Shown in pieces: positions 27,053-42,390 of a DNA stretch of 64,000 nucleotides. Positions within the stretch are counted from its first letter, which is position 1, and every line of letters begins with the position of its first letter. The notes beneath the pieces were generated by a model, which saw only the letters and a program-made list of their open reading frames with translations, was not told the origin of the DNA and searched no databases. Location: the NCBI GenBank assembly GCA_001800315.1, contig MGVE01000001.1, positions 121,749-185,748 on the forward strand, given 5' to 3'. The stretch comes from Elusimicrobia bacterium RIFOXYA2_FULL_47_53. GTDB lineage: Bacteria; Elusimicrobiota; Endomicrobiia; Endomicrobiales; XYA2-FULL-47-53. A program made the position numbers and the translations under genes.

Positions 27053-28369
27053 TCATAATATCCATTCACCTTTTGTTTTTTCATCGTTTAAACAATTTAA
27101 TATCTTTTCCTGATCCGAAGCGCTCAGAGATGTTTTATCAAAGTTTGTTCTGCCGGCCATTGTTTTAAAGTTCTTTAATACTTCTCTTTTTACGGTGCTA
27201 TCGCTGTCGTTGTACAGGTCAAATAATATTTTAATCGTATCGGGATTGGCTATCAGCGCCAGGGCACGCACAACATTGGATCTTATCTGAGGGTTCTCGT
27301 TTTTTGACATTTTTTTTAGAAAATCAAGCGCCGAGCCCGGCGCGTACTCATAGAGGTTTTGCGCCATCGCGGCGATTCTTTCCCGGGCCGATTCAAGAGC
27401 CGGAGAAGCAAATTCACCGGTGCTTATGTCTCCGTCAAGAATTTCAAGAATCCTGGCCTGCTGCTGGTGAAAAAAAGCTTCCTGTGGGGCGGCATTCCTG
27501 CCGTATTTAGCTATCATTTCGGAACGGAGCCTTTCTTCAATCTGCCTGGTTTTCTGCTCCAGTTCTATTTTAAGCCTTTCTTCTTCCTTCCTTGATCTTT
27601 GCTTAAGTTCAACCCTGAACTGCTCGGCGATCTGATGCTCGTATTTGATTTTCTCTTTATGTTTTTCAAGTTCAATAGATACATTGTTCTTTTCTTTAGA
27701 AAGCGTTTTAAACTCCTCTTCAACCTTTAACAGGCTGGCCCTTACTTTTTTCAGGGAAATTGATTCAATTATCAGGGAGGCCAAAAGAACAATAAACCCG
27801 AGAAAGAAAACGGACGCGGCTCCCGCAAAAATAAAAAAGTATCTTATCTTGTAATCATTTGACTTGTCCCGATAAACCGCGTTAAGAGGCGCCCTCTGCT
27901 CGGCCGTTCGCTTCACGGGAGCTTCCGCCTTTACCGCCGGCTTATACTGTTTTGTAACCTGAGTCTGCGGTTCAGGATAGCTTTTTCGCTCTTTTGATTC
28001 TCCCGGTTTATTGTATTCCTGGGCGGTGTTCATCAGGTCGTTCGTAAGCTTGTATAATTCCTGAACCCTCTGGTTTTGCGGAGCGAAAGCGTTCGCTCTG
28101 CTGATGTATTCCAGGGCCTGCCTGTAGTTTCTGTTCATGTGAGCCTGGGTCGTAGCCTCAATAAGTATTTTAATAATAAATTCCCGAATTTTGGCGTTAG
28201 AAGGGTCTAATTTTTGAGCCTTTTCAAGATTTTCAACGGCTTCAGCGAAATTACCCTGCAGATATTTCTCGGTACCGGCGTTGAAATACAAATTGGAATC
28301 TTCCGATGAGAATATCGTCCCGAGCGAGAAAAAAATAATTAAAATAATTGAAGCGGTTATTTTTATCAT
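27053..28369 (-). CDS. Signal peptide-TPR-TM-coiled coil-HEAT repeat membrane protein
   Basis: N-terminal signal; TPRs (YLQGNFAEAVENLEKAQKLDP); Pro/Lys linker; TM (FFIFAGAASVFFLGFIVLL); coiled coil; HEAT-like repeats (NPQIRSNVVRAL, DSTVKREV). Confidence 0.8.
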   Translation of the reverse strand: MIKITASIILIIFFSLGTIFSSEDSNLYFNAGTEKYLQGNFAEAVENLEKAQKLDPSNAKIREFIIKILIEATTQAHMNRNYRQALEYISRANAFAPQNQRVQELYKLTNDLMNTAQEYNKPGESKERKSYPEPQTQVTKQYKPAVKAEAPVKRTAEQRAPLNAVYRDKSNDYKIRYFFIFAGAASVFFLGFIVLLASLIIESISLKKVRASLLKVEEEFKTLSKEKNNVSIELEKHKEKIKYEHQIAEQFRVELKQRSRKEEERLKIELEQKTRQIEERLRSEMIAKYGRNAAPQEAFFHQQQARILEILDGDISTGEFASPALESARERIAAMAQNLYEYAPGSALDFLKKMSKNENPQIRSNVVRALALIANPDTIKILFDLYNDSDSTVKREVLKNFKTMAGRTNFDKTSLSASDQEKILNCLNDEKTKGEWIL

Positions 28370-28402
28370 AATATTAACCTCTTGGAGCCATATTGAGTCA
28401 AA

Positions 28403-29863
28403 TTACTGAGATATTTCCAGAATTGTCTGTATTCTCTTAAGGAGCAGAGAGGCCTCCGTGTTTTGCGGATCAATCTTCATAACCTCTATTAATTCGCCTT
28501 TAGCGTCATTATATTTCTGTTCACCCAGATATAGCTGCGCCTGAGAGAGAAAACCCATGACCCTAACTTCCGTGTTATCGGGTTGAATATCCAGCAGGTA
28601 ATTAATGTCGCTCATGGCGGCCTCGTACTTCCCTTGTTTATAGTTTGCCCGTATTTCCTTGAGCCTTCGGACAATTGTTTCGCTGTTCATTCTTGATCTA
28701 ATTTCCGCGAGCAGAGCTTTTGCCTCTTCCTGGGCAGGATCGGATTTCAGAATCGCCTCAAGAATTTCAGCGGACGCGCTGTATTGTTTTTTCTCGTATT
28801 TATCCCTCGCGTCTATAAACATTATTATCAGCTTTGAGGAGGTTTTTAAGCGCTCTTTTTCAAAGCGGATCCGCTCCAGTTCGTTAGCCGATTTGTTTTC
28901 AAATTCAATCCTTTCATTCTTAAGGTTTTCCCACTCGCTTTTTACCCTCTCCTCGGCCTCGGTCAATATAAAGCCGTAACGGACAGTAAGCGTGAAAGAA
29001 TGAATCAAATCAAGCGGATGGTATATGATAGCATAGTCAAAATCAATCTGCCTTGTTGAAAATCCGAAACCCGCGGAAAACTGCTTCTGATTCGCCCCCA
29101 CGCGCCAGTGAGCCATTTTAGGATAATCGTACTCCAGGCCCGCAAACCATCTGGAAACCAGATTCCCGCTCTGGAATAAATTTAAGATATGCAGGTCAAC
29201 AGCCGCCGTAAGTTTCCCCGGAATCAGTATACGGCTGTATCCGGCTTTGGGGACAAATTCAAATACATCCGTGCCCAGCCGGGCCGGGATGATATTAGAC
29301 AAGGTCAGCCCCCAGCTGTCCGCGGGAGAGGTCTTGATAATAAGGCCGGCGTCGGCTCCGGCTCCGCGCGCGGAATAATAATCAATATCCTGGGAAATAA
29401 ACTTTGCTCCGCCCCCCGCGAAAATGTTTTTTGAAAGCTTGCGCGAGTATACGGCCATTATCGTTGTGTTGACATCCGCGAAGCTTCCCAAAGTTTCTCC
29501 GAGAGCGTTGGTCTTTTCGGCATCGGAAGAGGAAAGCCTTATCAGCGAAAGCCCGAACGAATGTTTTTCGTTGAACGGATAACCGTAGCTCATAGCTATG
29601 AACTGACCCTGGGCGAACAGAGGGGTCACATTAAAGCTTGCTTCTTTCCACCAGAGGCTGGCCAGGCTGGCCGGGTTTGAATAAATCAGCTCTGCTTTGC
29701 CGTCAAGCCCTGTCCCCGCGAGCCCGAGAGAGGCGCCTCTGGCGCCTCCGGAAAACGCGTTAAGGTATTCTCCCGCGTAGCCGCTGTAGTCCTGCTGCAG
29801 CCAGGAAAATGAATCTGATGAGAGTAGCAGTAGCAGCATGATAGCCGGCGCGAGCCTTTTCAT
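28403..29863 (-). CDS. PorV/FadL-like outer-membrane beta-barrel fused to coiled coil + TPRs
   Basis: Signal peptide; GARGASLG.A...NPASL N-terminal motif; amphipathic strands ending SAGFGF...FDYA...HSFTLTVRY; C-terminal TPRs. Confidence 0.8.
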   Translation of the reverse strand: MKRLAPAIMLLLLLSSDSFSWLQQDYSGYAGEYLNAFSGGARGASLGLAGTGLDGKAELIYSNPASLASLWWKEASFNVTPLFAQGQFIAMSYGYPFNEKHSFGLSLIRLSSSDAEKTNALGETLGSFADVNTTIMAVYSRKLSKNIFAGGGAKFISQDIDYYSARGAGADAGLIIKTSPADSWGLTLSNIIPARLGTDVFEFVPKAGYSRILIPGKLTAAVDLHILNLFQSGNLVSRWFAGLEYDYPKMAHWRVGANQKQFSAGFGFSTRQIDFDYAIIYHPLDLIHSFTLTVRYGFILTEAEERVKSEWENLKNERIEFENKSANELERIRFEKERLKTSSKLIIMFIDARDKYEKKQYSASAEILEAILKSDPAQEEAKALLAEIRSRMNSETIVRRLKEIRANYKQGKYEAAMSDINYLLDIQPDNTEVRVMGFLSQAQLYLGEQKYNDAKGELIEVMKIDPQNTEASLLLKRIQTILEISQ

Positions 29864-29865
29864 AG

Positions 29866-30240
29866 TTATTGGCGCTGCAAAATCTCGTTAACCGTTGAAA
29901 GCAGGGTGGCGACTTTAAAGGGCTTCTCAAGATAGGCGGCAACACTGACGCCTTCTCTTGCTTTAAGAAATTCCTGCATATGCCCTTTGCCCGTGACAAT
30001 TACAACGGGAATGCCGGCTGTTTCCGGGTTTTCCCTGAGCCTGAGATTCACGGAATAACCGTCCAGCACAGGCATCATAATGTCAAGAATTATCAAATCC
30101 GGCTTAAAGGACGCGACTTTTTTAAGAGCCTCTAAACCGTCGGCCGCGCTGTCGGTTATATAGCCGGAACCGTCCAGGGCGGATTTCAGGACGAAAACAA
30201 TGTCTTTTTCGTCATCAACCACAAGCACTTTTTTGGACAT
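29866..30240 (-). CDS. Stand-alone response regulator receiver (CheY-like)
   Basis: VVDDE, LDIMMP phosphoacceptor, T, KPF; GGAGGGG SD. Confidence 0.93.
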   Translation of the reverse strand: MSKKVLVVDDEKDIVFVLKSALDGSGYITDSAADGLEALKKVASFKPDLIILDIMMPVLDGYSVNLRLRENPETAGIPVVIVTGKGHMQEFLKAREGVSVAAYLEKPFKVATLLSTVNEILQRQ

Positions 30241-30254
30241 ATCCCCTCCACGAC

Positions 30255-33200
30255 TTATTTTACAACCCCAATCTTCCTTAACTGCTTTTCGGAGCCGCTT
30301 TTAATCTCAAGCAGATAGATGCCGTTGGCCACATATCTCCCGGAGTTATTTTTACCGTCCCATTTTATCTCATTGGAATAGCCGGTCGGCTGGCCCTTTG
30401 CGCCTTCCGAGCCTGAAGGATAATTTCTTTCAAGCACCAGATCCCCCAGCTGTGTGTATATTTTAATGGTCGTATCGTGATTTTCCGTTAACACATAAAG
30501 AATCCTGGTCTCCTCTTTGCCGGCCGCGAAAGGGTTTGGAAAATTTGTTACGCCGGAAATCGCGGAAACAGGCGCGAGAGCCCCTACAAGAGTTATCACG
30601 CCTAATTTTGATATCGCTGTTCTAACTGCGCCGGCGCCTGAGTCAATAGAAGGGAAATCAGGAGCCGTTTCCCATTTGCCGGCATTTTCATTGAGCAGGG
30701 CGCATCTTAAGTTTTTCAGGGGCACGCTTGTGCCGTCATAATAGTTGTCTTTGTTGCTGTTGCGATATCTGAATTTAATTTCGCATTTGGGATTATCAAC
30801 GGGAAGCACGCTATCGTCCGCCGCGCAAACGCTTAATCTGTATGAGTCTTCATTCAGCGGTTTAATAAGCCTGTCGGCCAGCGTAAATTCATCAGCCATG
30901 GCTATGGCCTTGAGCTCGGACGACTGAACCTTTACAATTTTCAGGTAGCCGTTGTCAGGAAGGCCCTGCGTGATTTCAGCGTACAATTTGGAATCCGTGC
31001 TGGTGGTTTTGAAACGGCTTAAAACAAAAGCCCAGCCCGAGCCGGAACTGATTTTTTCAAGTCCCAGAGGGTCTTTTGCCACTACTCTCCAGAAGTAAGT
31101 GGTTTCCTGGGTTAAACTTAACGGGGAAAGCCTGTAAGTGTTTGTGCTTATGCCTTCAACAACAAAGGATGGAGTGAAGTTCTCGGCTGTGCTGATGACA
31201 AGAGAAAACGAGATAATATCTTCAGGGTTCGGGTCCCCGTTATTTTCCCAGGCGAAATCAAGATTCAGCTGCGAGACATTATCCCCGCTGGCCGGATAGA
31301 TAATTGAAAAATCCATCGGAGGAAAGTTCTGGTTATTAACCGAAATATCGGCTGTTGAAAGGGCCTCAGCGGAGAGCGGAGGAGCGCCGTTGTCAGTGAC
31401 AATAATTTTAATCCGGTAGTTCGGGCCGTTTGGGATAGTTCTTGTATTTAACTGGTAATAAGTCGCGTTAACCGTTGATAACAGCGAGAAATTTTCTCCG
31501 CTGTCATTTGAAATATATACGGCTGAGGAGTGAGAGTCGGCGAGATTTGGGTCGGATACGGACCAGGAAATTTGAACCGTACCGCTGATGGTTGTGCCTC
31601 CCGCGGGTGTCTGAAGCGACACCGAAGGAGCCTCGTTAATATTGGAAATCTGAAAGTTCGCGGCGGAAGCAGTTGAAAAATTCAGGCCCCTTTCGTCCGT
31701 TGCGGTTATTTTTATTTTGTGTTCGGCGCCGTTGCAGGTCTGCCGGGTATTCCATAGGTAATGGGTGGTTCCGTTTGGCAGGCCGGAGGCTACAGTAACA
31801 GGGAAAGTAAGCCCGCCGTCAAAAGATTCGTATATTGAAAACACCCTTGTGTCTCCCGGGTTAGGATCTGCCGAACTCCAGAGAATATCCTGTTCCGCGG
31901 CCCAGTTTTCCCCTCCGGACGGCGCTATAATGGTTACTAAGGGAGGAGCATTGGTTAAAGCGCTCGCCTGTGGAGAAGAGATTGTTGAAGAATTGCCGGC
32001 GATATCGTACAGCTTCACCGCGAAATAGTAGGTTGTGGAATTGTTTAAACCGTCAACGGCGACATTCTCATGATGCCCCTGCGGCGAGTTGGCGAAGCTG
32101 CCGGTGTTTTGCCCGGGAGTTGAGTCAAAGCTTCCCGCTGTAATGGCTGAAATTGAACTGTGCCTGATGTCATAGGCCTTAAAATAGGTGTTTCCGGAGG
32201 GGCTTGAATCCCACGGAGAGGTCCAGGAAAGAATTATCTGTCCGTTGGAATAGCCTATAGAAGCTGAAAGGTCGGTTATAGGGTTTGGAGCGATCGTGTC
32301 AACATAAAGAGTATAACTGTCAGACCAGTCGCCGTAAGCGGTGGCGTCAAAGGCTCTTACCTGCCAGTACCAGGTGCCCGGGGTCAGGAGCGAGGTGGTT
32401 CCGGAAGTCAGAAAAGATGTGGTATTGAGCCCAGAGGTGCTTATTTCGGGGCTTGAGAAAGCAGGAGCGTTGTCAACCTGCAGATGGTATGTGATAATAT
32501 CTCCCGTGTCAGAGTCCTGCGAGTCTAACCAGGAAAAGACGGGCCTGGAAAAATTTGTGGTGGCGCCGGTGAGCGGCGAAAGCAGTGTTACTTTATTCGG
32601 GGCGGAATTGTATGTTACGGTTACCGACTTTATGACAGGAGTTTTGGGAAGCGTTGTCGCGTCAAAATATGCTTTATATTTTATAAATCTCCTGTTGTTA
32701 TGCACTGTCGTGCCGATAGAATAAGGCGGCATGCCGGTGAAAAAAGTATTCGTATTGCCGTCCGGCCCCCTGAAACTATCCCAGTTAGCGTTGTCAGTTG
32801 ACGATGCCAGCTGGAATTTTAAGGTAGTACCTGTTATAACCTGAGGGTTATCCGTGACGCTGAGCTGTTTCCACTGCAAAGATGTCGTAAAAGGCACATC
32901 AATATAGGCCGATTCAAAACTGCCGGAGGCGCGGTAAACGAAATATCTCGTTTCCTGAAGATTCGCGGTATCACTGCCGCCGAAAAAAAATGATTTTCTT
33001 TGAGAAGGAATATAGACAGCGGACTGTCCGTATCTGGCGGTAATTACATTTAACGGCGCTTCATTGCTCAGGGCCCAGGAATTTGTTATCGGCACAAAAT
33101 ACCTGATATCATTGTAACGAGTCGTATTGAATATTCCTCCCGTGACGACTATACAGGAAGAAGTAAAAGAGTTATACGCGTCGTAGAACATTGATGAATC

Positions 33201-34046
33201 CGTCCTTGCTTCAGGCGCGTTACTGGCAGCGTTATAAACATACCAGGAGCTTGAAACTACATCGTAGGACCATAGATCCTGCATCTCCGCATTGGAAATA
33301 TTAACGCCTCCGAATATAAACACTTTACCGGCATTATCGTAAGCTATTGAGGCGCCGGTGCGCGCCGCCGGCGCGGTTTGAGGCGAGGCCAGGCTCCAGG
33401 TTTTTGCGGCTATATCGTAAAACCAGGTTTCGTTTGATTTGGTTCCCTCGGTGTTGCCGCCAAAAAGAACCACCTTGGATTGATTATCAACCCTTGCCAT
33501 GGAAAAGAAAGCCCTGTTTGAAGGTGAGGTTGAGACGGACTGTTCCTCCCATTTTGTTGTGCTGCAATTGTAGAACCAGGTGTCTCCGTAGTAAGTTCCA
33601 GCCTCATTTTTACCGCCAAACAGAAGTATCCTGTTTGAGTCAAGAGGCACAATGGTGTGTCCGTATCTTGCCTGGGGCGCCACAGTGCTTGTAATTATGT
33701 GCTGGTTCCATAAATTATTTGAGGAATTGTATTCCCAGACATCATTAAATTCACTCCCTGAATTGTATCCGCCAAAAACTATCATGGATGAATTTGATGC
33801 CGGATTCAGGCAGGCAGAATGCCAGCGTCTTGGGGAAGGGCTTAAGGCGGGAGTCAGGTCTGAAGACCACTGAAAACTCAGCTGTATGCTGTCAGTCGCG
33901 GCGTCAACAACCTGAACCTGATCCTGCTTCCCTGAATTAAACTGGTTGTACGAGTTTTGAGTAGAAGAATTGGCAAACACAAGAGAGTCAGCCGCGCATG
34001 AGAGCAACAGGATAAGCGTATAAAATGAATGACGAATATTTCTCAC
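30255..34046 (-). CDS. Large secreted protein: Kelch beta-propeller + Ig/FN3-like repeats + T9SS-type/FlgD-Ig C-terminal domain
   Basis: Signal peptide; six GG..W Kelch blades; N.AP/PP...P..G Ig repeats; C-terminal NFPNPF...IKIYT..G.LV...WDGKN..G..VANGIYL...RKIGVVK. Confidence 0.85.
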   Translation of the reverse strand: MRNIRHSFYTLILLLSCAADSLVFANSSTQNSYNQFNSGKQDQVQVVDAATDSIQLSFQWSSDLTPALSPSPRRWHSACLNPASNSSMIVFGGYNSGSEFNDVWEYNSSNNLWNQHIITSTVAPQARYGHTIVPLDSNRILLFGGKNEAGTYYGDTWFYNCSTTKWEEQSVSTSPSNRAFFSMARVDNQSKVVLFGGNTEGTKSNETWFYDIAAKTWSLASPQTAPAARTGASIAYDNAGKVFIFGGVNISNAEMQDLWSYDVVSSSWYVYNAASNAPEARTDSSMFYDAYNSFTSSCIVVTGGIFNTTRYNDIRYFVPITNSWALSNEAPLNVITARYGQSAVYIPSQRKSFFFGGSDTANLQETRYFVYRASGSFESAYIDVPFTTSLQWKQLSVTDNPQVITGTTLKFQLASSTDNANWDSFRGPDGNTNTFFTGMPPYSIGTTVHNNRRFIKYKAYFDATTLPKTPVIKSVTVTYNSAPNKVTLLSPLTGATTNFSRPVFSWLDSQDSDTGDIITYHLQVDNAPAFSSPEISTSGLNTTSFLTSGTTSLLTPGTWYWQVRAFDATAYGDWSDSYTLYVDTIAPNPITDLSASIGYSNGQIILSWTSPWDSSPSGNTYFKAYDIRHSSISAITAGSFDSTPGQNTGSFANSPQGHHENVAVDGLNNSTTYYFAVKLYDIAGNSSTISSPQASALTNAPPLVTIIAPSGGENWAAEQDILWSSADPNPGDTRVFSIYESFDGGLTFPVTVASGLPNGTTHYLWNTRQTCNGAEHKIKITATDERGLNFSTASAANFQISNINEAPSVSLQTPAGGTTISGTVQISWSVSDPNLADSHSSAVYISNDSGENFSLLSTVNATYYQLNTRTIPNGPNYRIKIIVTDNGAPPLSAEALSTADISVNNQNFPPMDFSIIYPASGDNVSQLNLDFAWENNGDPNPEDIISFSLVISTAENFTPSFVVEGISTNTYRLSPLSLTQETTYFWRVVAKDPLGLEKISSGSGWAFVLSRFKTTSTDSKLYAEITQGLPDNGYLKIVKVQSSELKAIAMADEFTLADRLIKPLNEDSYRLSVCAADDSVLPVDNPKCEIKFRYRNSNKDNYYDGTSVPLKNLRCALLNENAGKWETAPDFPSIDSGAGAVRTAISKLGVITLVGALAPVSAISGVTNFPNPFAAGKEETRILYVLTENHDTTIKIYTQLGDLVLERNYPSGSEGAKGQPTGYSNEIKWDGKNNSGRYVANGIYLLEIKSGSEKQLRKIGVVK

Positions 34047-34115
34047 CCCTGTTTTCGTTGTGCCTAAGCCGGATATAATAATTTTTACGGCCGACGCGCG
34101 TTTACCGGGACAGGC

Positions 34116-34490
34116 TTACTCAAGAAGTTTTGCCATTACGGCCTGCCTTAAGTATTTAAGGTCAAACGGCTTGAAAATGCAGTCAAAAGCGCCGATGCGA
34201 AAGGCATCAACAACTTTTTCGGCGTCGCGGTAAGCGGTAATCATAATAACAGGCAGGTCGGGCTGAATTTTTTTTAATTCTCTCAAAGTTTCAATGCCGT
34301 TCATGCCCGGCATTGCCATATCCAGAAGAACCAGATTCGCCTTCATTTCATGAAGTTTGTCAACGGCCTGCTGTCCGCTCTTAGCCGTCAACACCTTAAA
34401 CCCCTCACTACTGAGAAACTCGCCAAGAATCATTAATATGTCCGGCTCGTCGTCAACAATCATGATGCTGCTCTTTTTAGTTTCTGCCAC
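34116..34490 (-). CDS. Stand-alone response regulator receiver
   Basis: IVDDE, LDMAMP, TA, KPFD. Start reassigned to GTG 34490 behind GGAGG (track start 34535 abuts the repeat). Confidence 0.92.
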   Translation of the reverse strand: MAETKKSSIMIVDDEPDILMILGEFLSSEGFKVLTAKSGQQAVDKLHEMKANLVLLDMAMPGMNGIETLRELKKIQPDLPVIMITAYRDAEKVVDAFRIGAFDCIFKPFDLKYLRQAVMAKLLE

Positions 34491-34536
34491 AATAACCTCC
34501 CCGGTTAGCCACCCCTTCGCATCTTTGCTGCTCAAA

Positions 34537-34654
34537 TTGAGTCTGTTGAAAAACCCTTAAAACGACCCGTCATTGCGATCTCCCGCAGGGAGAGAAGCAA
34601 TCTTGAAGTTTCGTTGTTGTCGTTGCGAGCGACTGAAAGGAGCGTGGCAATCCC
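34537..34654. repeat. Second copy of the 8.2-kb repeat family (left end + two tandem half-units)
   Basis: TTGAGTCTGTTGAAAAACC...GTCATTGCGA..CCCGCAGGG..GAAGCAATCT matches 8185-8247; a second half-unit GTCGTTGCGAG...GTGGCAATCCC at 34619-34654. Confidence 0.75.
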
Positions 34655-34711
34655 GCAGTTTTCGCCGGACTATTCGGTGCGATTTTGACACGCAGGGCAG
34701 CTTTAAAAGGT

Positions 34712-36304
34712 TCAGGCTTCCTGATTTACAGGAAGCCTGACAAAAAACTTTGAGCCCTTGCCTTTTTCCGACTCAGCCCAGATAGCGCCCCTGTGTTTTT
34801 CAACTATTGATTTAACAATGGCCAGGCCGAGGCCAAACCCGGCGTGGGTTCTTGAAACCGAACCGTCCACCTGGAAAAACTTTTCAAAAATCCTACCAAT
34901 CTTGTCAGCGGGTATGCCTTCGCCGTTGTCACTTACGACCAGCAGGACAGTCTTGCCGCCTTCTTCAATTTTGGCGCTTATTATTACTTCTCCTCCCGAG
35001 TGAGTGAATTTTAATGCGTTGCCGATAAGGTTTACAATTACCTGTTTTATGCGTTCATTATCGCCGAATATTTCAATTTTCCCGTCAGAATGCTTGAAAA
35101 TAAGTTCAATGTTCTTTTCTTTCGCTCTTAAATGAAGGTCCTGAAGGGTTTCGTCAATAAGAACTTTTAAATTAAACCATGAAGGCATGAGGTTAAGTTT
35201 ATTTGTCTCCATACGGGAAAAATCAAGCAGGTCGTTTACCAGGAGCTGCATTCTTGTTGAATTTCTCTTAATGAGGTCAAAAAACATGGTGACTTTGTCA
35301 TTGTCCTTTAAAATGGACATATAGGGGTAAAGCAGTTCAATTGCTCCGCCGATAGACATTAAGGGAGTCCTCAGCTCGTGCGAAACATTGGACATAAACT
35401 CTGAGCGCAGTTCGTCAAGCTGTCTTTGCGCCTCGCGGTACTGCATGGCTGAAATCAGCAGAGTGGAGTGCACGCCAAAGACCTTGAGCGAATCAAGGTC
35501 ATTCTGGGTAAACTGGTAATTGGTCTGAGAAACCAGCCTGTTAAGGCATATCACCCCTATAAGGGCGTCTTCATTTATCAACGGACAGATTAGAGAGGAG
35601 ACTATTTCAGACCTTGAGGGAAGCTCGGCAAACTGCGGCGCGTTCTCAAACCCACTTTGAATAAGAACGGCCTCCCTGTTCTTGGCGACCCACCCGACTA
35701 TTTTTTCGCCGTAACCGACTCTGGTCAGTTCCTCCTCATTCAGGCCGAAGGAAGCCACTGAAGCAAGCTGATTGCTGTCCAGAACAAGCATAAAAATGGA
35801 TCCGGTATCCGCCTTTAGCGTTTTTATGGCTCTTTCCAGTATCAGGTTAAGCAGTTCTTTCTGGGTGTTATTTTTCGTGGCCTGCTGGGCGAGTTGATAC
35901 AGGTGAGTGGTTTCCCTGTAAATATTCTCTTTGCGTGAGAGTTTGGCGTGTTCCAGGCACTTTCTGACATTCACAAGAACATCTTCAATATTGAATGGTT
36001 TCAGCAGATAGGCGAAAGCGCCGCTTTTAATTGAGGCTATGGCGGACTCTATTGTGGCCTGGCCGGTCATTATTATTACTTCTGTCTGAGGTTTTATAAG
36101 GCGGATTTTGTTGAGGATTTCCATGCCGTTGCAGTCCGGCATTTTCAGGTCGGTCAGCACAAGATCAAAAAAAGTCGTGGAAATTAACGAGTCAAGATTG
36201 GCGCAGGAATTAAGGGTGGTTACCTTGTACCCCTCCGCTTCTAATACTTTGCTCAGCAGCTTAAGTATTCCTTCTTCGTCGTCAATGATTAATACGCTTT
36301 CCAT
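34712..36304 (-). CDS. Hybrid kinase REC-GAF-HisKA-HATPase
   Basis: N-terminal receiver (IDDE, TDLKMP, KPF), GAF, SHELRTPL, NLIGNALKFT, D.GEGI, G.GLGLAI. Confidence 0.93.
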   Translation of the reverse strand: MESVLIIDDEEGILKLLSKVLEAEGYKVTTLNSCANLDSLISTTFFDLVLTDLKMPDCNGMEILNKIRLIKPQTEVIIMTGQATIESAIASIKSGAFAYLLKPFNIEDVLVNVRKCLEHAKLSRKENIYRETTHLYQLAQQATKNNTQKELLNLILERAIKTLKADTGSIFMLVLDSNQLASVASFGLNEEELTRVGYGEKIVGWVAKNREAVLIQSGFENAPQFAELPSRSEIVSSLICPLINEDALIGVICLNRLVSQTNYQFTQNDLDSLKVFGVHSTLLISAMQYREAQRQLDELRSEFMSNVSHELRTPLMSIGGAIELLYPYMSILKDNDKVTMFFDLIKRNSTRMQLLVNDLLDFSRMETNKLNLMPSWFNLKVLIDETLQDLHLRAKEKNIELIFKHSDGKIEIFGDNERIKQVIVNLIGNALKFTHSGGEVIISAKIEEGGKTVLLVVSDNGEGIPADKIGRIFEKFFQVDGSVSRTHAGFGLGLAIVKSIVEKHRGAIWAESEKGKGSKFFVRLPVNQEA

Positions 36305-36450: not shown

Positions 36451-36479
36451 ATTATAACAGAAGCTTTACCTGTTGTCAA
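36451..36479 (-). promoter_or_regulatory. Perfect-consensus sigma70 promoter upstream of signalling/surface-protein cluster
   Basis: TTGACA-17 nt-TATAAT, with TG at the extended -10. Confidence 0.85.
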
Positions 36480-36538: not shown

Positions 36539-38338
36539 TCATTTCTTGTTTTTGTCCGGCTGTGCCGCGGCGCGCTTATTGTTTTTCTCATGAGCAGTTA
36601 AAAGCTTTGATTCAGCGTTTTCACGGCGCTCAGTTTCTTTCGCGAGCAGCTGCTTAAGCCGGTCGTTTTCCTCTTTTAACCGCGCGAAGCGTTCCGTGCT
36701 GTTTTCCTGCCTGTTCTTTATCAAAGCGGAATCGTGCTTATTCTGAGCGTCCATAAGCTGAGAGTTTTTAATCGCTAAATCCCGCTTAATTTTCTGCAGT
36801 ATCTCCTTCTGTTCGGCCTGAGCTGTCTGAGCGGCCGCGAGCTCCGCGTTCAGCCTTGAAATCTCGTTGTCCCTGGACTCAATCTGGATGTTAAACTTAT
36901 TTCTGCCGTCATCAAGCTGTTTTTTGTAGAGTTCCTTTTCTTTTGACAGAGTCTCCTGCCAGTGAAGGTCATTTTTACCGTTGTATTCGTTCAGCCTGCT
37001 ATTTTCCGACTCAGTGGATCTTAGTTTTGCCGCCAGAACGGCCAATTCTTCTTTCGCGCGCGATAAATCATCCTTCAGGGCGGACAATAAATCCTCCAGC
37101 AATTTCTTTTCGCCTTTTAATGCGGACTGGTCTATTTCAGACTGAGCGCTCATGCCGGACAGCTCTTTGGCGAAAGCCCCCTCTTTCTCGCGCAGAATGG
37201 ATTCAAAGCCTGCTGTTTTATTGGCAGATTCGGCCAGAAGTTTCTGAATTTTTGACTCGGCTTCAATAAGGCGAGAGTCTTTCTCGTTAATTTTAGCTTC
37301 CAGTTCGGCGCGCAATTTCTTCTCGTCGTCCAGCTGCTGTTCAAACATCTCAGCCGACTGCGCCAGCCTCTTTATCTGCTCAAGGTGGTCATTTTTTAAT
37401 ACCTCAATCTGCCTGGAAGCTTCTTCCTTTGATTCAGTGGCGCTTCTCTGCGCGTCAAGACGAATTTTCTCGGCTTCTATCTTTTCGTGCTCCGATAAAA
37501 GCTTAAGCTGAGCGACAAGGGTTTCTTTGCCCGCGAGCTCTTCTTTATAAGAAACGGCCTGCTGCTGCAGAGCTTCATTGGAATTTCTCAGGGCATTGAG
37601 CTGAATTATCGTGTCCTGCAGGGCGTTCTGAAGCTTCTGAATATCCGAATCCTTCTTTTCAGCGGATTTTTTGATATTCTCCATTTCAAAGCCGTGCGTT
37701 TTAGCAAGCTGTTCTATCTTAGCCTTTAACTCAAACAGCTCATTGTCTTTATCGGAAGCGGCTTTTAAGAGGGAGGTTTCTTTTTTGTAAATATTGTCCC
37801 TGAGCGCGCGCAGTTCATCATCGCGTTTTTTTAACTCGTCGTTCAGCCTTTTTACGGCTTCCTCATGGGCTCTCTTTATGTGTATTATGCGCTCGCGTTC
37901 CGCGGCAAGCGCCTTTTCCGATATTTCGGACGCGGCCTTATAGTCTTTCAGTTTCTCGGAGATTTCATCCCATTTCTTCTTTTCCGTGATCCTTCGCAGT
38001 TCGGCTTCCCTGGACTTTTCCTCCAGCCTGACGATGTCAAGCGACCTTTCGTCGTTAAGCCTCTGCTTGGCGGCCTTAAGGATGTTTTCCGTCTCTTCCA
38101 GCTTTGAACGGAGCGATAAAATTATGCTTTCTTTTTCAGAAATGATTTTAGTCCAGCCCTCTTTTTCCTTCTCGTGGCGGGAGCGGACAAGGCGGAGTGT
38201 TTCGGATGAAATTTCTTTCTCCGTGTTTAACAGGTCCTGGACTATCTTATCGGGATTATCGGGCGTAACGGGCCGGGGAGTAGTTTCTTTTTGAATGCTG
38301 AAATTCATGAAGGAGTTGTTTTTATCGTCAATTGCCAT
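36539..38338 (-). CDS. Long soluble coiled-coil protein (599 aa), unknown function
   Basis: E/K/L/A/Q-rich heptads throughout, no TM or enzymatic motif; starts 9 nt after the motB2 stop. Confidence 0.85.
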   Translation of the reverse strand: MAIDDKNNSFMNFSIQKETTPRPVTPDNPDKIVQDLLNTEKEISSETLRLVRSRHEKEKEGWTKIISEKESIILSLRSKLEETENILKAAKQRLNDERSLDIVRLEEKSREAELRRITEKKKWDEISEKLKDYKAASEISEKALAAERERIIHIKRAHEEAVKRLNDELKKRDDELRALRDNIYKKETSLLKAASDKDNELFELKAKIEQLAKTHGFEMENIKKSAEKKDSDIQKLQNALQDTIIQLNALRNSNEALQQQAVSYKEELAGKETLVAQLKLLSEHEKIEAEKIRLDAQRSATESKEEASRQIEVLKNDHLEQIKRLAQSAEMFEQQLDDEKKLRAELEAKINEKDSRLIEAESKIQKLLAESANKTAGFESILREKEGAFAKELSGMSAQSEIDQSALKGEKKLLEDLLSALKDDLSRAKEELAVLAAKLRSTESENSRLNEYNGKNDLHWQETLSKEKELYKKQLDDGRNKFNIQIESRDNEISRLNAELAAAQTAQAEQKEILQKIKRDLAIKNSQLMDAQNKHDSALIKNRQENSTERFARLKEENDRLKQLLAKETERRENAESKLLTAHEKNNKRAAAQPDKNKK

Positions 38339-38347
38339 AGGTAAGCC

Positions 38348-39067
38348 TCACTGGGCGGCTTGTTTTCTGGCGGTAAGTATGTCAATTTCTATGCGCCTGT
38401 TCTGAGAGCGGTTCTCTTCGGTGTCATTGGATAAAACAGGGCGGAATTCCCCATACCCCGCTGCGGCGAACCTCCGCGGGTCTAATCCTTCATTTTTTAC
38501 AAAGTAGTTAACCACTTCCATGGCTCTGGCTATTGAAAGCTCCCAGTTGGATTTAAATTTGCCGCCGTGGATGGGAAGATTGTCGGTATGGCCTTCAACT
38601 ATTATCTCATTATCCGTCTGCTTCAGGATTATCTGGGCCATCTCGTGCATCAGTTCTTTTGATTCCTTTTTAAGCTCAAACTGGCCTACATCAAAAAGTA
38701 TAGGGTTCGCGAAAACAACCTTGATATGATCCGCCGCGCTGTTAACCGTGATGAAGTTTTTAAGATGCAGTTTTTCTATCATGTCGTCAAATTTTGAGAC
38801 TATCTGGTCATTTTTATCCTGTTCCACCATTTTTTCAATAAGGTCTTTATTTACCTCTCCGCCCATCTCCGCCTGAATGTCGGCCACTATCTTCTGGAAG
38901 CTTTTATCCTGTTTTGAATTATAGGCGAACGCGAACATCAGAAGAAAGAATATCATTAAAACCGTCATGAAGTCCGCGTATGGAACTATCCATAGGTCTC
39001 CGAGATCGGTCTGGTGATCTTCTTCTCTTGTGGCATTCTCCCAGTCTCTTGACGAGTATTTAGACAT
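38348..39067 (-). CDS. motB: MotB/PomB-like stator subunit 2 (TM + OmpA-like PG-binding domain)
   Basis: WIVPYADFMT TM with conserved Asp; VEGHTD, NWELS..RA, GYGEFRP, NRRIEI. Confidence 0.9.
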   Translation of the reverse strand: MSKYSSRDWENATREEDHQTDLGDLWIVPYADFMTVLMIFFLLMFAFAYNSKQDKSFQKIVADIQAEMGGEVNKDLIEKMVEQDKNDQIVSKFDDMIEKLHLKNFITVNSAADHIKVVFANPILFDVGQFELKKESKELMHEMAQIILKQTDNEIIVEGHTDNLPIHGGKFKSNWELSIARAMEVVNYFVKNEGLDPRRFAAAGYGEFRPVLSNDTEENRSQNRRIEIDILTARKQAAQ

Positions 39068-39072
39068 AGCCC

Positions 39073-39762
39073 CTACTTTATTTTGATAATGCTGATTTCT
39101 ATTCTTCTGTTTATCATTCTGTTTTCCGGATTGTCATTGGGCGCCTTGGGCCTGAACTCGCCATAGCCAAGGGCCGAAATCCTTTTTGGCTCAATACCCT
39201 CTTTGTCTATCAGGTATTGTATGACGCTAAAGGCCCGGGCGGCCGAAAGTTCCCAATTTGAGGCGTATTCGCCCCCGGCAGTTATCGCGATGTTGTCCGT
39301 ATGCCCTTCAACAACAACTCTGTTTGTGGTATTTTTTATAAGGTTTGAAATTTCGCTCAGCGTTTTTATGGTCGCGGCCTTAAGCTCGGCGCTGCCGGAA
39401 TCAAAGAGAACGGGGCTTGGCAGGACTATTTTTATTTTTTCTTCGTTTATTTCAACATTGGCGAACTGCTGTTTTGCTTTTTTCTCCAGGTCTTCCTGTT
39501 CTTCCATCTGAGTCTGCCGCTTCTTTTCCAGGCCCTTTTCAGTTTCCATTACCTCGTTTTTCTGTCCGCCGAAAGTTTCGGCGAATGAAGAGGCCGCCAG
39601 CTGCCTGTCGCTTTCATCCAGCCAGGTCAGGCAATAGGACATAAGGAAAAATATCATGAGATTGGTGATCATATCGGTGTATATGATCATCCAAAGCGGC
39701 GCTTTCAGGTCAGAATCCACGCCTCTGACATTGTCGTAGTTAGGCGAAAACGGGTCTGACAT
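39073..39762 (-). CDS. motB: MotB/PomB-like stator subunit 1
   Basis: WMIIYTDMIT TM with conserved Asp; VEGHTD, NWELSAARA, GYGEFRP, NRRIEI. Confidence 0.9.
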   Translation of the reverse strand: MSDPFSPNYDNVRGVDSDLKAPLWMIIYTDMITNLMIFFLMSYCLTWLDESDRQLAASSFAETFGGQKNEVMETEKGLEKKRQTQMEEQEDLEKKAKQQFANVEINEEKIKIVLPSPVLFDSGSAELKAATIKTLSEISNLIKNTTNRVVVEGHTDNIAITAGGEYASNWELSAARAFSVIQYLIDKEGIEPKRISALGYGEFRPKAPNDNPENRMINRRIEISIIKIK

Positions 39763-39765
39763 TAA

Positions 39766-40542
39766 TTACTCCCGGACGGGTTTTTTGCTGCGCAGCTTCG
39801 CGGCCATGAAAGCCTGAAGTTTCCTGTTTAAAATAATAGGTATGTCGCCTTTCTGAATGGAAAGAATTCCTTCTATCATAACTTCTTTAATCAGGAGTTC
39901 TTCCTCGGTGTGGGCGTCCAGTTTGTTCGCCATGGGAAGGAAAAGAAAGTTCGCGGCGGAGATGCCGTAAAATGTTCCGGTAACGGCGATCGCCATTGAG
40001 TGGCCGAGGTTTTTCGGGTCGCTTATGCTTTTAAGCACCTGCACAACGCCGAGCAGTGTCGCCAGAAGGCCGAAGATCGGAGAGAAAGTTCCCAGCGAGC
40101 GGATAACATTGCTTACCTGGTGATGGCGTTTCCTGATAAAGGTGATTTCTTTTAAAAGATTCTCGCGCACCATCTGAGGCTCAAGGCCGTCAATGAGCAT
40201 TAAAATTCCGTCGGCAAGAAATCTGTCCTTTACCCTGCCTACATCTTCCTGCAGGGAGTATATGCCTTCTCTTTTGGCTTTTTCAGAAAAATTTACCAGA
40301 GACGAGATAACATCATTTGGTTTAAGAGTTTTTCTGGCAAGGAATACATTAAGAAGCGCTCCGGGCAGCCTGAGCACAACTTCCATAGGGGTTGAGATAA
40401 GCATAGAGGCGAAAGTCCCGCCGAAAACCAGCACAAACGCGTCCCTGTGCCAGAGCAGATGAGATGTTCCGCCCCAGTACATTACGATGTAAACAGCTCC
40501 GAAACCAAGGCCTAATCCAAGCAGTGTCATGAAATCAAGCAT
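39766..40542 (-). CDS. motA: MotA/PomA-like stator subunit
   Basis: VFGGT, AKREG..SL, P.FG...T..G, GTFYG..ANF.F.P, EGILSIQ.G..P. Confidence 0.92.
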   Translation of the reverse strand: MLDFMTLLGLGLGFGAVYIVMYWGGTSHLLWHRDAFVLVFGGTFASMLISTPMEVVLRLPGALLNVFLARKTLKPNDVISSLVNFSEKAKREGIYSLQEDVGRVKDRFLADGILMLIDGLEPQMVRENLLKEITFIRKRHHQVSNVIRSLGTFSPIFGLLATLLGVVQVLKSISDPKNLGHSMAIAVTGTFYGISAANFLFLPMANKLDAHTEEELLIKEVMIEGILSIQKGDIPIILNRKLQAFMAAKLRSKKPVRE

Positions 40543-40633: not shown

Positions 40634-41737
40634 TCAGGCCTGTTTGATTACCCTCTTCAAAGGAAGGCCGTGTTTTAAGGCTTTTCTTTTTGCCTCTTCA
40701 AATTCTATCCTGATTTTTTTAGTTCCGCCGGGCATAAATATCGTTTTACGCGAGCCGTCAGTGGATCTGTTGAGCAGGTATCTTTTGGCCGGGAGGGATC
40801 TTACCCCGATTGTGGTTGTTTCGTCAAAAAGTATTGAGGCCATTTTTGCCTCGTCTTTTGTATCGCAGAGCACGCCTATCTTGGTGCCGGGCCTGCCTTT
40901 TTTCATCATAATCTGCTCAAGCCATACATCCTTGGCTCCGGCTTTAAGCAGTTGCTCGGAAACATAGGGATAGATTCTTGGGTCCATGTCGTCAATGTTG
41001 GTTTCAAGCACCGCGATCTCTTCCTGCCTGAAATCGTATTTATCCCCCGCGGCGCCGGGCTCGCCTACCAGGATATTTAAAACATTGGGTTTGCCGTCTA
41101 TGTCATTTTCTCCGGCTCCAAAACCGGATTTCGTCACGATTAACGAAGGCATGGCGCCGAAATTCAAACAGAGGCTTCCTATCAGGGCCATCCCCGTCGG
41201 CGTAGCGAGCTCATGGTTTGAATCATCGGAGAAAACCGGCACCTTCATCGCTTTCGCGAGTTCAATAGCCGCGGGAGCCGGCCTGCCGAGATTAACTTCG
41301 GAGGCGAATAACCGCTTTATACCGAGAAGCTGCAAAGCAAGGCAGACACCGGAAATATCCACCAGGGTGTCAATATCCGCGAGCTGATGAAAATGAGTGC
41401 CGTCTACGGGCCTTCTGTGCACGGAAGCCTCGGCGGCGGCAAGCGAACGCATGGCCGCAAGCGCGTTTGACTTGACTTCACCGGGCAGCGAGGACCTGTT
41501 CAGGGCGCTGATAAGCTTCAGCGGAGTATCAAACTTTATGTTTCCCTCCACTCGCAGAGTTTTGGCCGGGAAGTGATACCTGTTTGTAGTTCTTACAGTC
41601 AGCCTAAAATCACCTATGTTTAAGCGCTTTTTAAGAGTCCCGGCAAAAGCCGAAGGATTTAAGCCGGCATCTATTAGCGCGGAGAGCAGCATATCGCCTG
41701 ATACGCCCCGCGAACAGTTTATGTAGGCTATGCTCAT
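40634..41737 (-). CDS. larC: LarC-family nickel-pincer cofactor biosynthesis protein (divergent)
   Basis: G.SGDM, AEA.VH, HFH, PAPA, EL.TPTG, ETNIDD, MKKGRP, ETTTIGVR. Confidence 0.85.
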   Translation of the reverse strand: MSIAYINCSRGVSGDMLLSALIDAGLNPSAFAGTLKKRLNIGDFRLTVRTTNRYHFPAKTLRVEGNIKFDTPLKLISALNRSSLPGEVKSNALAAMRSLAAAEASVHRRPVDGTHFHQLADIDTLVDISGVCLALQLLGIKRLFASEVNLGRPAPAAIELAKAMKVPVFSDDSNHELATPTGMALIGSLCLNFGAMPSLIVTKSGFGAGENDIDGKPNVLNILVGEPGAAGDKYDFRQEEIAVLETNIDDMDPRIYPYVSEQLLKAGAKDVWLEQIMMKKGRPGTKIGVLCDTKDEAKMASILFDETTTIGVRSLPAKRYLLNRSTDGSRKTIFMPGGTKKIRIEFEEAKRKALKHGLPLKRVIKQA

Positions 41738-42390
41738 TTCTTTCCTCCGCCGTTTATCAGCCCGGCTATAACACCGGCCCCAAAACCGTCGTCAATATTT
41801 ACCACGCTCACATTTGCCGCGCAGGAATTTAACATGCTCATTAAAGCCGAGACACCGCCGAAAGATACTCCGTATCCCACGGAGGTAGGAACGCCTATAA
41901 CCGGACAGGCGACCAAACCGCCCACCACGCTGGCCAGAGCGCCCTCCATGCCAGCGCAGACGACGGCACAAGAGGCGTTTTTTAAAAGCTTATCGTATTT
42001 AAAAAGCCTGTGTATTCCGGCAACACCGACATCGTAAACTCTTTCAACTCTATTTCCCAGAATCTCCGCTGTAACCGCGGCTTCTTCCGCCACCCTAATG
42101 TCGGAAGTTCCAGCAGTAACCACGCAGATATACCCGCCTGGCCTGCCGATTTTATGCTTTCTGTTGAAAAGTATTATCCCCGCGCTTTCATAGTATTTGG
42201 AACCCCGAAAAGAGCGGCGAATCTTTTGGTAAAGATCCGGCTGAACTCTTGTGGCTATGACAGGGCCGCCGCCATTGACAAGTTCCCTGGCTATAGAAAT
42301 TATCTGCTTTACCGTCTTTCCGGGAGCATAGATAGCCTCGGGAAAGTTCTGCCGCAGGTACCTGTGCCCGTCAGCGTGAAAATGTTTCAT
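41734..42390 (-). CDS. larB: Nickel-pincer cofactor biosynthesis protein LarB
   Basis: PE.I...KT, AGTSD..VAEEA, DVGVAGIHR, AGMEGAL, PTSVGYG, ML.SC, VVNID.GFG. Confidence 0.92.
   Translation of the reverse strand: MKHFHADGHRYLRQNFPEAIYAPGKTVKQIISIARELVNGGGPVIATRVQPDLYQKIRRSFRGSKYYESAGIILFNRKHKIGRPGGYICVVTAGTSDIRVAEEAAVTAEILGNRVERVYDVGVAGIHRLFKYDKLLKNASCAVVCAGMEGALASVVGGLVACPVIGVPTSVGYGVSFGGVSALMSMLNSCAANVSVVNIDDGFGAGVIAGLINGGGKK

Follow-up and report, generated by a model that had tools for sequence, protein, structure and literature searches.

The question raised by this locus is whether a single MotA encoded together with two different MotB proteins forms one asymmetric stator, A5:B1:B2, or is served by B subunits that can be swapped, these being the two readings offered by the original prediction. 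The window, i.e. the whole stretch of 64,000 nucleotides that was analyzed, carries on its minus strand motA (39766-40542, 258 aa), motB1 (39073-39762, 229 aa) and motB2 (38348-39067, 239 aa), and the ORF coordinates bear out the predicted tight spacing, with 3 nt between motA and motB1 (39763-39765) and 5 nt between the two motB genes (39068-39072). No strong promoter or terminator site was found at motA in a scan for both. The MotA protein matches the Pfam family MotA_ExbB above cut-off and displays full-length homology to 9lu9 (E 4.5e-48) and PomA (E 2e-36), with 8gqy, which we take to be Aquifex MotA, among the weaker PDB matches; its NCBIfam matches all score under the equivalog cut-offs, and the tree places it in a clade that accompanies two B genes. 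Both MotB proteins match Pfam MotB_plug and the full OmpA domain (profile 1-98 of 98) above cut-off, and both possess a transmembrane (TM) aspartate, D30 in B1 (codon 39673-39675, minus strand) and D32 in B2 (codon 38972-38974, minus strand), that aligns with the Asp of C. sporogenes MotB. The intact OmpA-like domain of B1 is a wall-binding domain, and that of B2 is likewise intact. With an identity of 41% across 209 residues and of 10/24 in the TM segment, the two are also as clearly diverged from each other as had been claimed alongside the retention of the Asp and the OmpA-like domain. The full-length homology of A and B, together with the TM Asp, plug and OmpA-like domain, relates the trio to the MotA5MotB2 and PomA5PomB2 stators (6ysf, 6ysl, 8bri); it differs from them in its two unlike B genes, the lack of a flagellum, a Gln at the E98-equivalent of MotA and a second B that is Asp-less in half of the family.

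The trio is real and conserved. In a search of 30 relatives, 16 of which belong to a family (f10) that has no trio, a tandem of B1 (57-70% identity) and B2 was recovered in seven genomes spanning six families. A wider collection, in which loci with MotB or FliG hits were pooled with the best 80 of 210 stretches bearing a MotA motif and loci sharing identical MotA C-termini were counted once, contained at least 90 distinct A-B1-B2 loci, mostly from Elusimicrobiota and Nitrospirota. Hence, the survey that had been proposed for a conserved motA-motB-motB triplet returns a positive answer. Among the best 80 of 210 loci selected by the MotA motif alone, a set that is unbiased as to neighbors and takes in Nitrospirota as well as records titled Clostridia, two B genes were present in every one of the 72 loci that were not truncated at a contig boundary, and the order of B1 and B2 was never flipped among the loci read. 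Relative to the closest relative of the window, pN is 0.13 for A and 0.22 for each of B1 and B2, and pS is 0.77-0.83. The succession of B1 and B2 in six families and pN values far under pS exclude the second motB being a sporadic recent duplicate. In one member of the same MotA clade, L078, MotA is accompanied by only one B, whose TM is of the B1 type, and a search of the complete genome found no second B in tandem; B2 is therefore not always required. Apparent B1-B2 or A-B fusions (L126, L058, L110, L156, L165 and L166) were dismissed as artefacts of N gaps or overlapping frames, and a tandem pair of OmpA proteins in L017, which are lipoprotein-like and devoid of the MotB TM, was excluded. 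A separate arrangement was observed in L173:1790-4136 (G014), where a MotA of another clade is followed by two MotB-like genes, the second without the Asp, and is preceded by a gene that by its appearance is a candidate hook gene.

The two B subunits fall into separate classes. For 179 of 180 B proteins the nearest neighbor belongs to the same class, and on a FastTree phylogeny from which 8 short or gapped B rows were excluded each B1/B2 label needs 3 changes, versus about 68 in shuffles. A reduced IQ-TREE analysis joined all B1 and B2 proteins apart from the single B genes (support 98) and grouped 18 of 20 B2 proteins (support 95), with the monophyly of B1 not resolved (4 changes). The marks of the classes lie in the channel helix: 1) Asn at Asp+4 in 86/88 B1 proteins and 2) Pro at Asp-3 in 66/89 B2 proteins, both of which are seen in the respective window proteins. 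Held-out profiles separated the TM parts of the window B1 and B2 by 23-26 bits and their much longer periplasmic parts by 8-20 bits; across the family the identity between the TMs of B1 and B2 has a median of 42% and a maximum of 67%. Judged by these sequence comparisons, the B1 and B2 classes are ancient and tied to gene position, and they diverge chiefly in the channel helix. A one-motA/two-motB operon (motA/motB1/motB2) has been described in Aquifex aeolicus (Takekawa 2015, PMC4525482; also PMC4987623), and shares with the trio the succession of one motA and two tandem motB genes. However, its pattern of divergence is the opposite, since in the available text its B TMs are given as 97% identical and the periplasmic parts as 23%, against the 10/24 of the window TMs; moreover, Aquifex is flagellated whereas the present genome lacks a flagellum, and the TM difference here is fixed by class.

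If the B subunits were swappable, MotA would assemble with homodimers of either B1 or B2 to give stator types differing in ion, load response or anchoring. We consider this unlikely, although both window copies retain the Asp, the full OmpA domain and intact wall-binding motifs, such that each could work alone, the two Aquifex proteins each function alone as chimeras (PMC4525482, available text), and L078 manages with one B. The divergence concentrated in the TM, the reverse of Aquifex, and the unflipped gene order already speak against it, and the distribution of the TM Asp does so as well: it is retained in 87 of 88 readable B1 proteins and lost in 43 of 89 B2 proteins. In the latter the position is occupied by Asp in 46 cases, Asn in 30, Thr in 9, Ala in 2 and Ser in 2, i.e. 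the D32 codon corresponds to a neutral residue in about half of the family, and the D30 codon is invariant in all 42 rows of alignment A3. Mapped onto the MotA tree, the state of B2 has switched 9 times or more, and none of the loci in the 90-locus set is without the Asp in both B subunits. The sole B1 without it, in L144, is accompanied by a B2 with the Asp and, coming from a single MAG, may reflect a sequencing error. A complementary loss is seen once in 90 loci, in the second trio of this genome (L001, contig C8), where B1 has the Asp and a degenerate wall-binding motif, and B2 has the motif and no Asp.

The TM Asp is the key ion-binding residue of stators (bioRxiv 2020.05.12.089201, available text), and consequently a B2 without it would be unable to power a motor alone. 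Such a subunit is readily explained as a regulator or as one of the two subunits of a mixed axle, and poorly explained as an alternative power unit. Because B2 often lacks the Asp and B1 almost never does, a mixed unit is favored over swappable B subunits, and we regard an A5:B1:B2 heterodimer as fairly probable. Of the two options in the original prediction the asymmetric motor is thus the stronger, and exchange of B subunits keeps a small share of the probability given that both Asps are kept in the window. Indeed, both B subunits keep the Asp throughout the window's own sub-clade, so that for the window itself the argument for a mixed axle rests on the family. The heterodimer must also be weighed against B2 as a regulator that would act as a brake or decoy, tying up MotA pentamers or restricting ion leakage, with A5B1(2) doing the work of the motor. 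Asp-to-Asn mutants of B subunits are dominant negative, the repeated loss of the Asp is confined to B2, and a single B of the B1 type exists in L078, all of which would suit such a role; the retention of the Asp in 46 of 89 B2 proteins, the window included, the conserved wall-binding motifs of B2 and a co-transcription with 5-nt spacing that suits a fixed stoichiometry argue against it, and we hold it to be improbable. A precedent for two unlike small subunits beside one large subunit comes from the Myxococcus gliding motor, for which an AglR5-AglQ-AglS heterodimer has been predicted (PMC11761067, available text), though the AglQ-AglS heterodimer is called unsettled in the accessible part of PMC9389320. 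The likeness ends there, as the Agl proteins are of the TolQR/ExbBD type and have neither an OmpA domain nor a FliG rotor, whereas the window B1 and B2 match MotB_plug and OmpA, with no ExbD family in their Pfam listing.

The coupling ion can be approached through the pore residues of MotA. The sodium signature comprises the pore threonines T158, T185 and T186 of PomA and a small residue at position 190 (PMC10374538, available text). The equivalent positions in the window MotA are T162, G189, T190 and I194 (A190 in PomA), and it shares with PomA the counterparts of T158 and T186. As the sequence T, G, T, I departs from the signature, the window motor is likely to be proton-driven. Thr occupies position 185 in 48 of 90 family MotAs, and a B2 without the Asp is found in 40 of 48 loci with this Thr versus 3 of 41 without it. 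Column 185 ranks first of 253 MotA columns for association with the loss of the Asp from B2, by the small margin of 0.47 versus 0.45. As the independent pairs behind this link are too few (just 4, p 0.25), we retain as a lead the suggestion that members of the sodium type can function with a second site that is neutral. With respect to torque generation, two charge pairs between stator and rotor have been defined (PMC12505986, available text). The MotA residue at the E. coli R90 position is K90 in the window and is basic (K or R) in 85/90. At the E. coli E98 position the window has Q, as do 44/90 members, and E is seen in 15/90. On the FliG side of the same charge pair, located by the E. coli FliG numbering, Arg is changed to Gly in 71/80. 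This pair has changed in both stator and rotor; the second one is retained.

The genome that harbors the window (G000) is 100% complete, and searches for FlhA, FliP, FliM/N (FliMN_C), the rod (Flg_bb_rod) and flagellin gave no match in it, while four control genomes were positive each time. It contains three MotA loci, namely the window, the second A-B-B trio on contig C8 and an A-B pair on contig C20, and four FliG_C proteins, three of which are long fusions. A structural model of one such fusion from a relative (mean pLDDT 80) displays a periplasmic alpha/beta domain, a membrane helix and the FliG middle and C-terminal domains; by fold it matches FliG structures (E 1e-11) and FliF ring structures (E ~3e-3), and by profile it matches FliF (E 8e-6). 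Such a partner, with the ring-building domain of FliF, a TM and the FliG middle and C-terminal domains, parallels the flagellar MS-ring and switch, from which it differs in being a natural single chain without the N-terminal part of FliF and without FliM/N, export gate, rod or filament. On contig C8, 24 nt separate the fusion from the motA that follows it, and within the best 80 of 210 MotA-selected loci a fusion rotor is directly upstream of motA in 70 of 74 with room for it. The 4 exceptions are close orthologs of the window, and in one of these the rotor is a neighbor encoded on the opposite strand. The fusion on contig C17 (G000 C17:3026-4483) groups with the rotors that stand beside orthologs of the window trio (support 96), and that on contig C6 with the rotors of single-B loci like the one on C20, making it plausible that the three rotors of this genome match its three stators. 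We regard the trio as the probable stator of a rotary machine that works without a flagellum. Our main reading, with a rough probability of 0.6, is that the three genes specify an ion motor whose axle is mixed, and that this motor likely drives a ring of fused FliF-FliG in a cell devoid of a flagellum.

In a phylum sample of 151 genomes FliG_C is found in 56, MotB_plug in 61 and FlhA in 4. Families f10 and f20, which we take to be animal-gut families, have FliG_C in 1 of 90 genomes, and the remaining genomes in 55 of 61. These counts bear on the proposal that the trio is what remains of a flagellum that was lost, or a duplicate of recent origin that is heading to decay. All its parts are homologs of flagellar components and FlhA does persist in the 4 genomes mentioned, but outside f10 and f20 those 4 stand against 55 with FliG_C, the rotor is a rebuilt fusion, the pN values given above are a fraction of pS, and the rotor-stator unit also occurs in Nitrospirota, with FlhA in 0 of 5 genomes checked outside the phylum (Nitrospirota or Clostridia-titled, of completeness not established). 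A remnant is accordingly extremely improbable.

Several further configurations of the fusion came to light. In L001:5182-10828 (G000 C8) a CTD protein, a PorV-TPR protein, the FliF-FliG fusion, MotA, B1 and B2 follow a 5966-aa CTD protein. A second type of module, split in this genome over two contigs (L177, G000 C6:75268-87728, and L002, G000 C20:39555-41030) and contiguous in L067-L077, comprises CTD, PorV-TPR, a FliF-FliG protein of 600-690 aa, long coiled-coil genes, MotA and a single MotB, the MotB having Glu at Asp+4 and the MotA having Ala at positions 185 and 186. A third type (L025, L079-L083) consists of a FliF-FliG protein of ~635 aa, a 360-400-aa protein, a TPR protein, MotA and a single MotB. 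L006 (G000 C15:22335-23375) encodes stand-alone FliG middle and C-terminal domains with TPRs and no FliF part; it is 65% identical to the C6 fusion and sits between parA- and parB-like genes. The Atlas matches of L008:11218-12708 also include FliF-FliG-like clusters for Cloacimonadota, Bdellovibrionota, Bacteroidota and Balneolota. A natural FliF-FliG fusion has reportedly been described from Chlorobium, which our literature search did not confirm.

A specific TPR module, occurring free or fused to a PorV-like barrel, accompanies the motor. It was detected in 51 of 151 phylum genomes, all within the 56 with FliG_C, by means of a profile built from rotor-adjacent genes; given that origin of the profile, its silence in genomes lacking FliG is the unbiased part of the result. 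Of the 64 trios seen in full, 52 have the module at their flank. In the window and 3 of its close orthologs the trio has neither the rotor nor the TPR module next to it. On the proposed mechanism, the MotA pentamer would assemble around a mixed MotB1-MotB2 axle, with B1 as the constant ion-carrying subunit and B2 as a second wall anchor and plug whose Asp would often be dispensable. The stator would turn a fused FliF-FliG ring, for the window presumably the one encoded elsewhere in the genome at G000 C17:3026-4483. Torque from this ring might travel by way of the periplasmic TPR module to a partner in the outer membrane, which in many Elusimicrobiota would be a PorV-like barrel, and that partner might in turn move a surface-displayed protein. 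We put forward such movement of a surface protein as a tentative output.

The same mixed stator could instead serve another output, with sensing as the main alternative: it may act as a surface or load sensor for two-component and cyclic-nucleotide signaling, or as an energizer of T9SS-like export in place of GldLM. Genes for kinases, receivers, GGDEF proteins and adenylate cyclases are frequent neighbors of the loci, a PorV-like gene immediately precedes the rotor at 19 of 65 loci compared with 32 of 2079 ORFs genome-wide, and this genome encodes a 1768-aa SprA/Sov-like protein (L178:6173-11479; TIGR04189, E 6.6e-49, below cut-off). On the other hand, the signaling neighbors vary among loci, and we likewise see these outputs as possible at best. 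The T9SS motor GldL5GldM2 is comparable in being a 5:2 ion motor that goes together with PorV, CTD cargo and SprA; there is no sequence relation and the link here consists of gene neighborhood only, the GldL/GldM-motor profile TIGR03517 having no match in G000 nor in any control genome. PorV-like genes are present in 142 of 151 phylum genomes and SprA-like genes (Pfam SprA_N) in 41, including families without the motor. In the motor-poor f10 and f20 PorV-like genes persist in 36/45 and 45/45 genomes and SprA-like genes in 14/45 and 0/45, respectively. Since such genes occur without the motor, export itself can probably proceed in its absence, and the candidacy of the trio as an export energizer is weakened.

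Orphan motAB and fliG genes of Elusimicrobiota have been noted with their role left open, and neither the fusion nor the twin B is mentioned in the available text of that report (bioRxiv 2022.07.08.499144); the main reading would provide these genes with a concrete architecture. The accessible part of PMC12505986 likewise has no occurrence of "Elusimicrob-" or "heterodimer", and a literature search covering main texts and few subscription papers did not turn up any account of a stator with a MotB heterodimer, of a second MotB lacking the Asp or of this FliF-FliG fusion module. In the standard model of 5:2 ion motors two identical Asp residues bind ions in turn, each with a 36-degree step (bioRxiv 2020.05.12.089201, PMC9389320, available texts). 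If the main reading is right, motors with an Asp-less B2 might run on a single acidic ion site, against this alternating two-site model. The family offers natural Asp/Asp (in the window), Asp/Asn, Asp/Thr and Asp/Ala pairs on one type of MotA, which makes the need for two acidic sites, and its dependence on the coupling ion, directly testable. The main reading would further imply that the torque-making core of the flagellar motor has been kept without a flagellum in most free-living lineages of a phylum. The broadest formulation, namely that in free-living Elusimicrobiota and some Nitrospirota an obligate A5:B1:B2 turns a FliF-FliG ring geared by TPRs to surface movement, and that the half with an Asp-less B2, mostly with Thr185, is single-site, is best treated as a speculative possibility.

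Immediately following the trio, 9 nt after motB2 on the same minus strand, is a gene for a charged, coiled-coil-like protein of 599 aa without a TM segment (36539-38338). It belongs to no Pfam or NCBIfam family and an Atlas search gave generic coiled coils only; homologs stand beside the trio in L007, L008, L011, L012, L029 and L031, suggesting that it is likely a co-transcribed accessory of the window sub-clade. Further downstream lie a Kelch/Ig protein with a T9SS-like C-terminal tail (30255-34046, minus strand), whose place in the gene order is the same in L007 and whose link to the motor is conjectural, and a PorV/PorQ-family barrel with TPRs (28403-29863, minus strand; NF033709, 94.5 bits against a cut-off of 90), which is not among the matches of the TPR-module profile and not of the rotor-tracking subtype. 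The whole downstream array (27053-36304), consisting of a TPR-HEAT protein, PorV-TPR, receiver, Kelch-CTD, receiver and hybrid kinase, retains its order in L007. Directly upstream of motA (40634-42390) are larC-like (Ni_insertion) and larB-like (AIRC) genes, which also neighbor the trio in L010-L012, with larC alone seen in L007; these are probably unrelated neighbors. A perfect sigma-70 consensus (12/12, with TG) is located at 36451-36479, upstream of the hybrid kinase gene.
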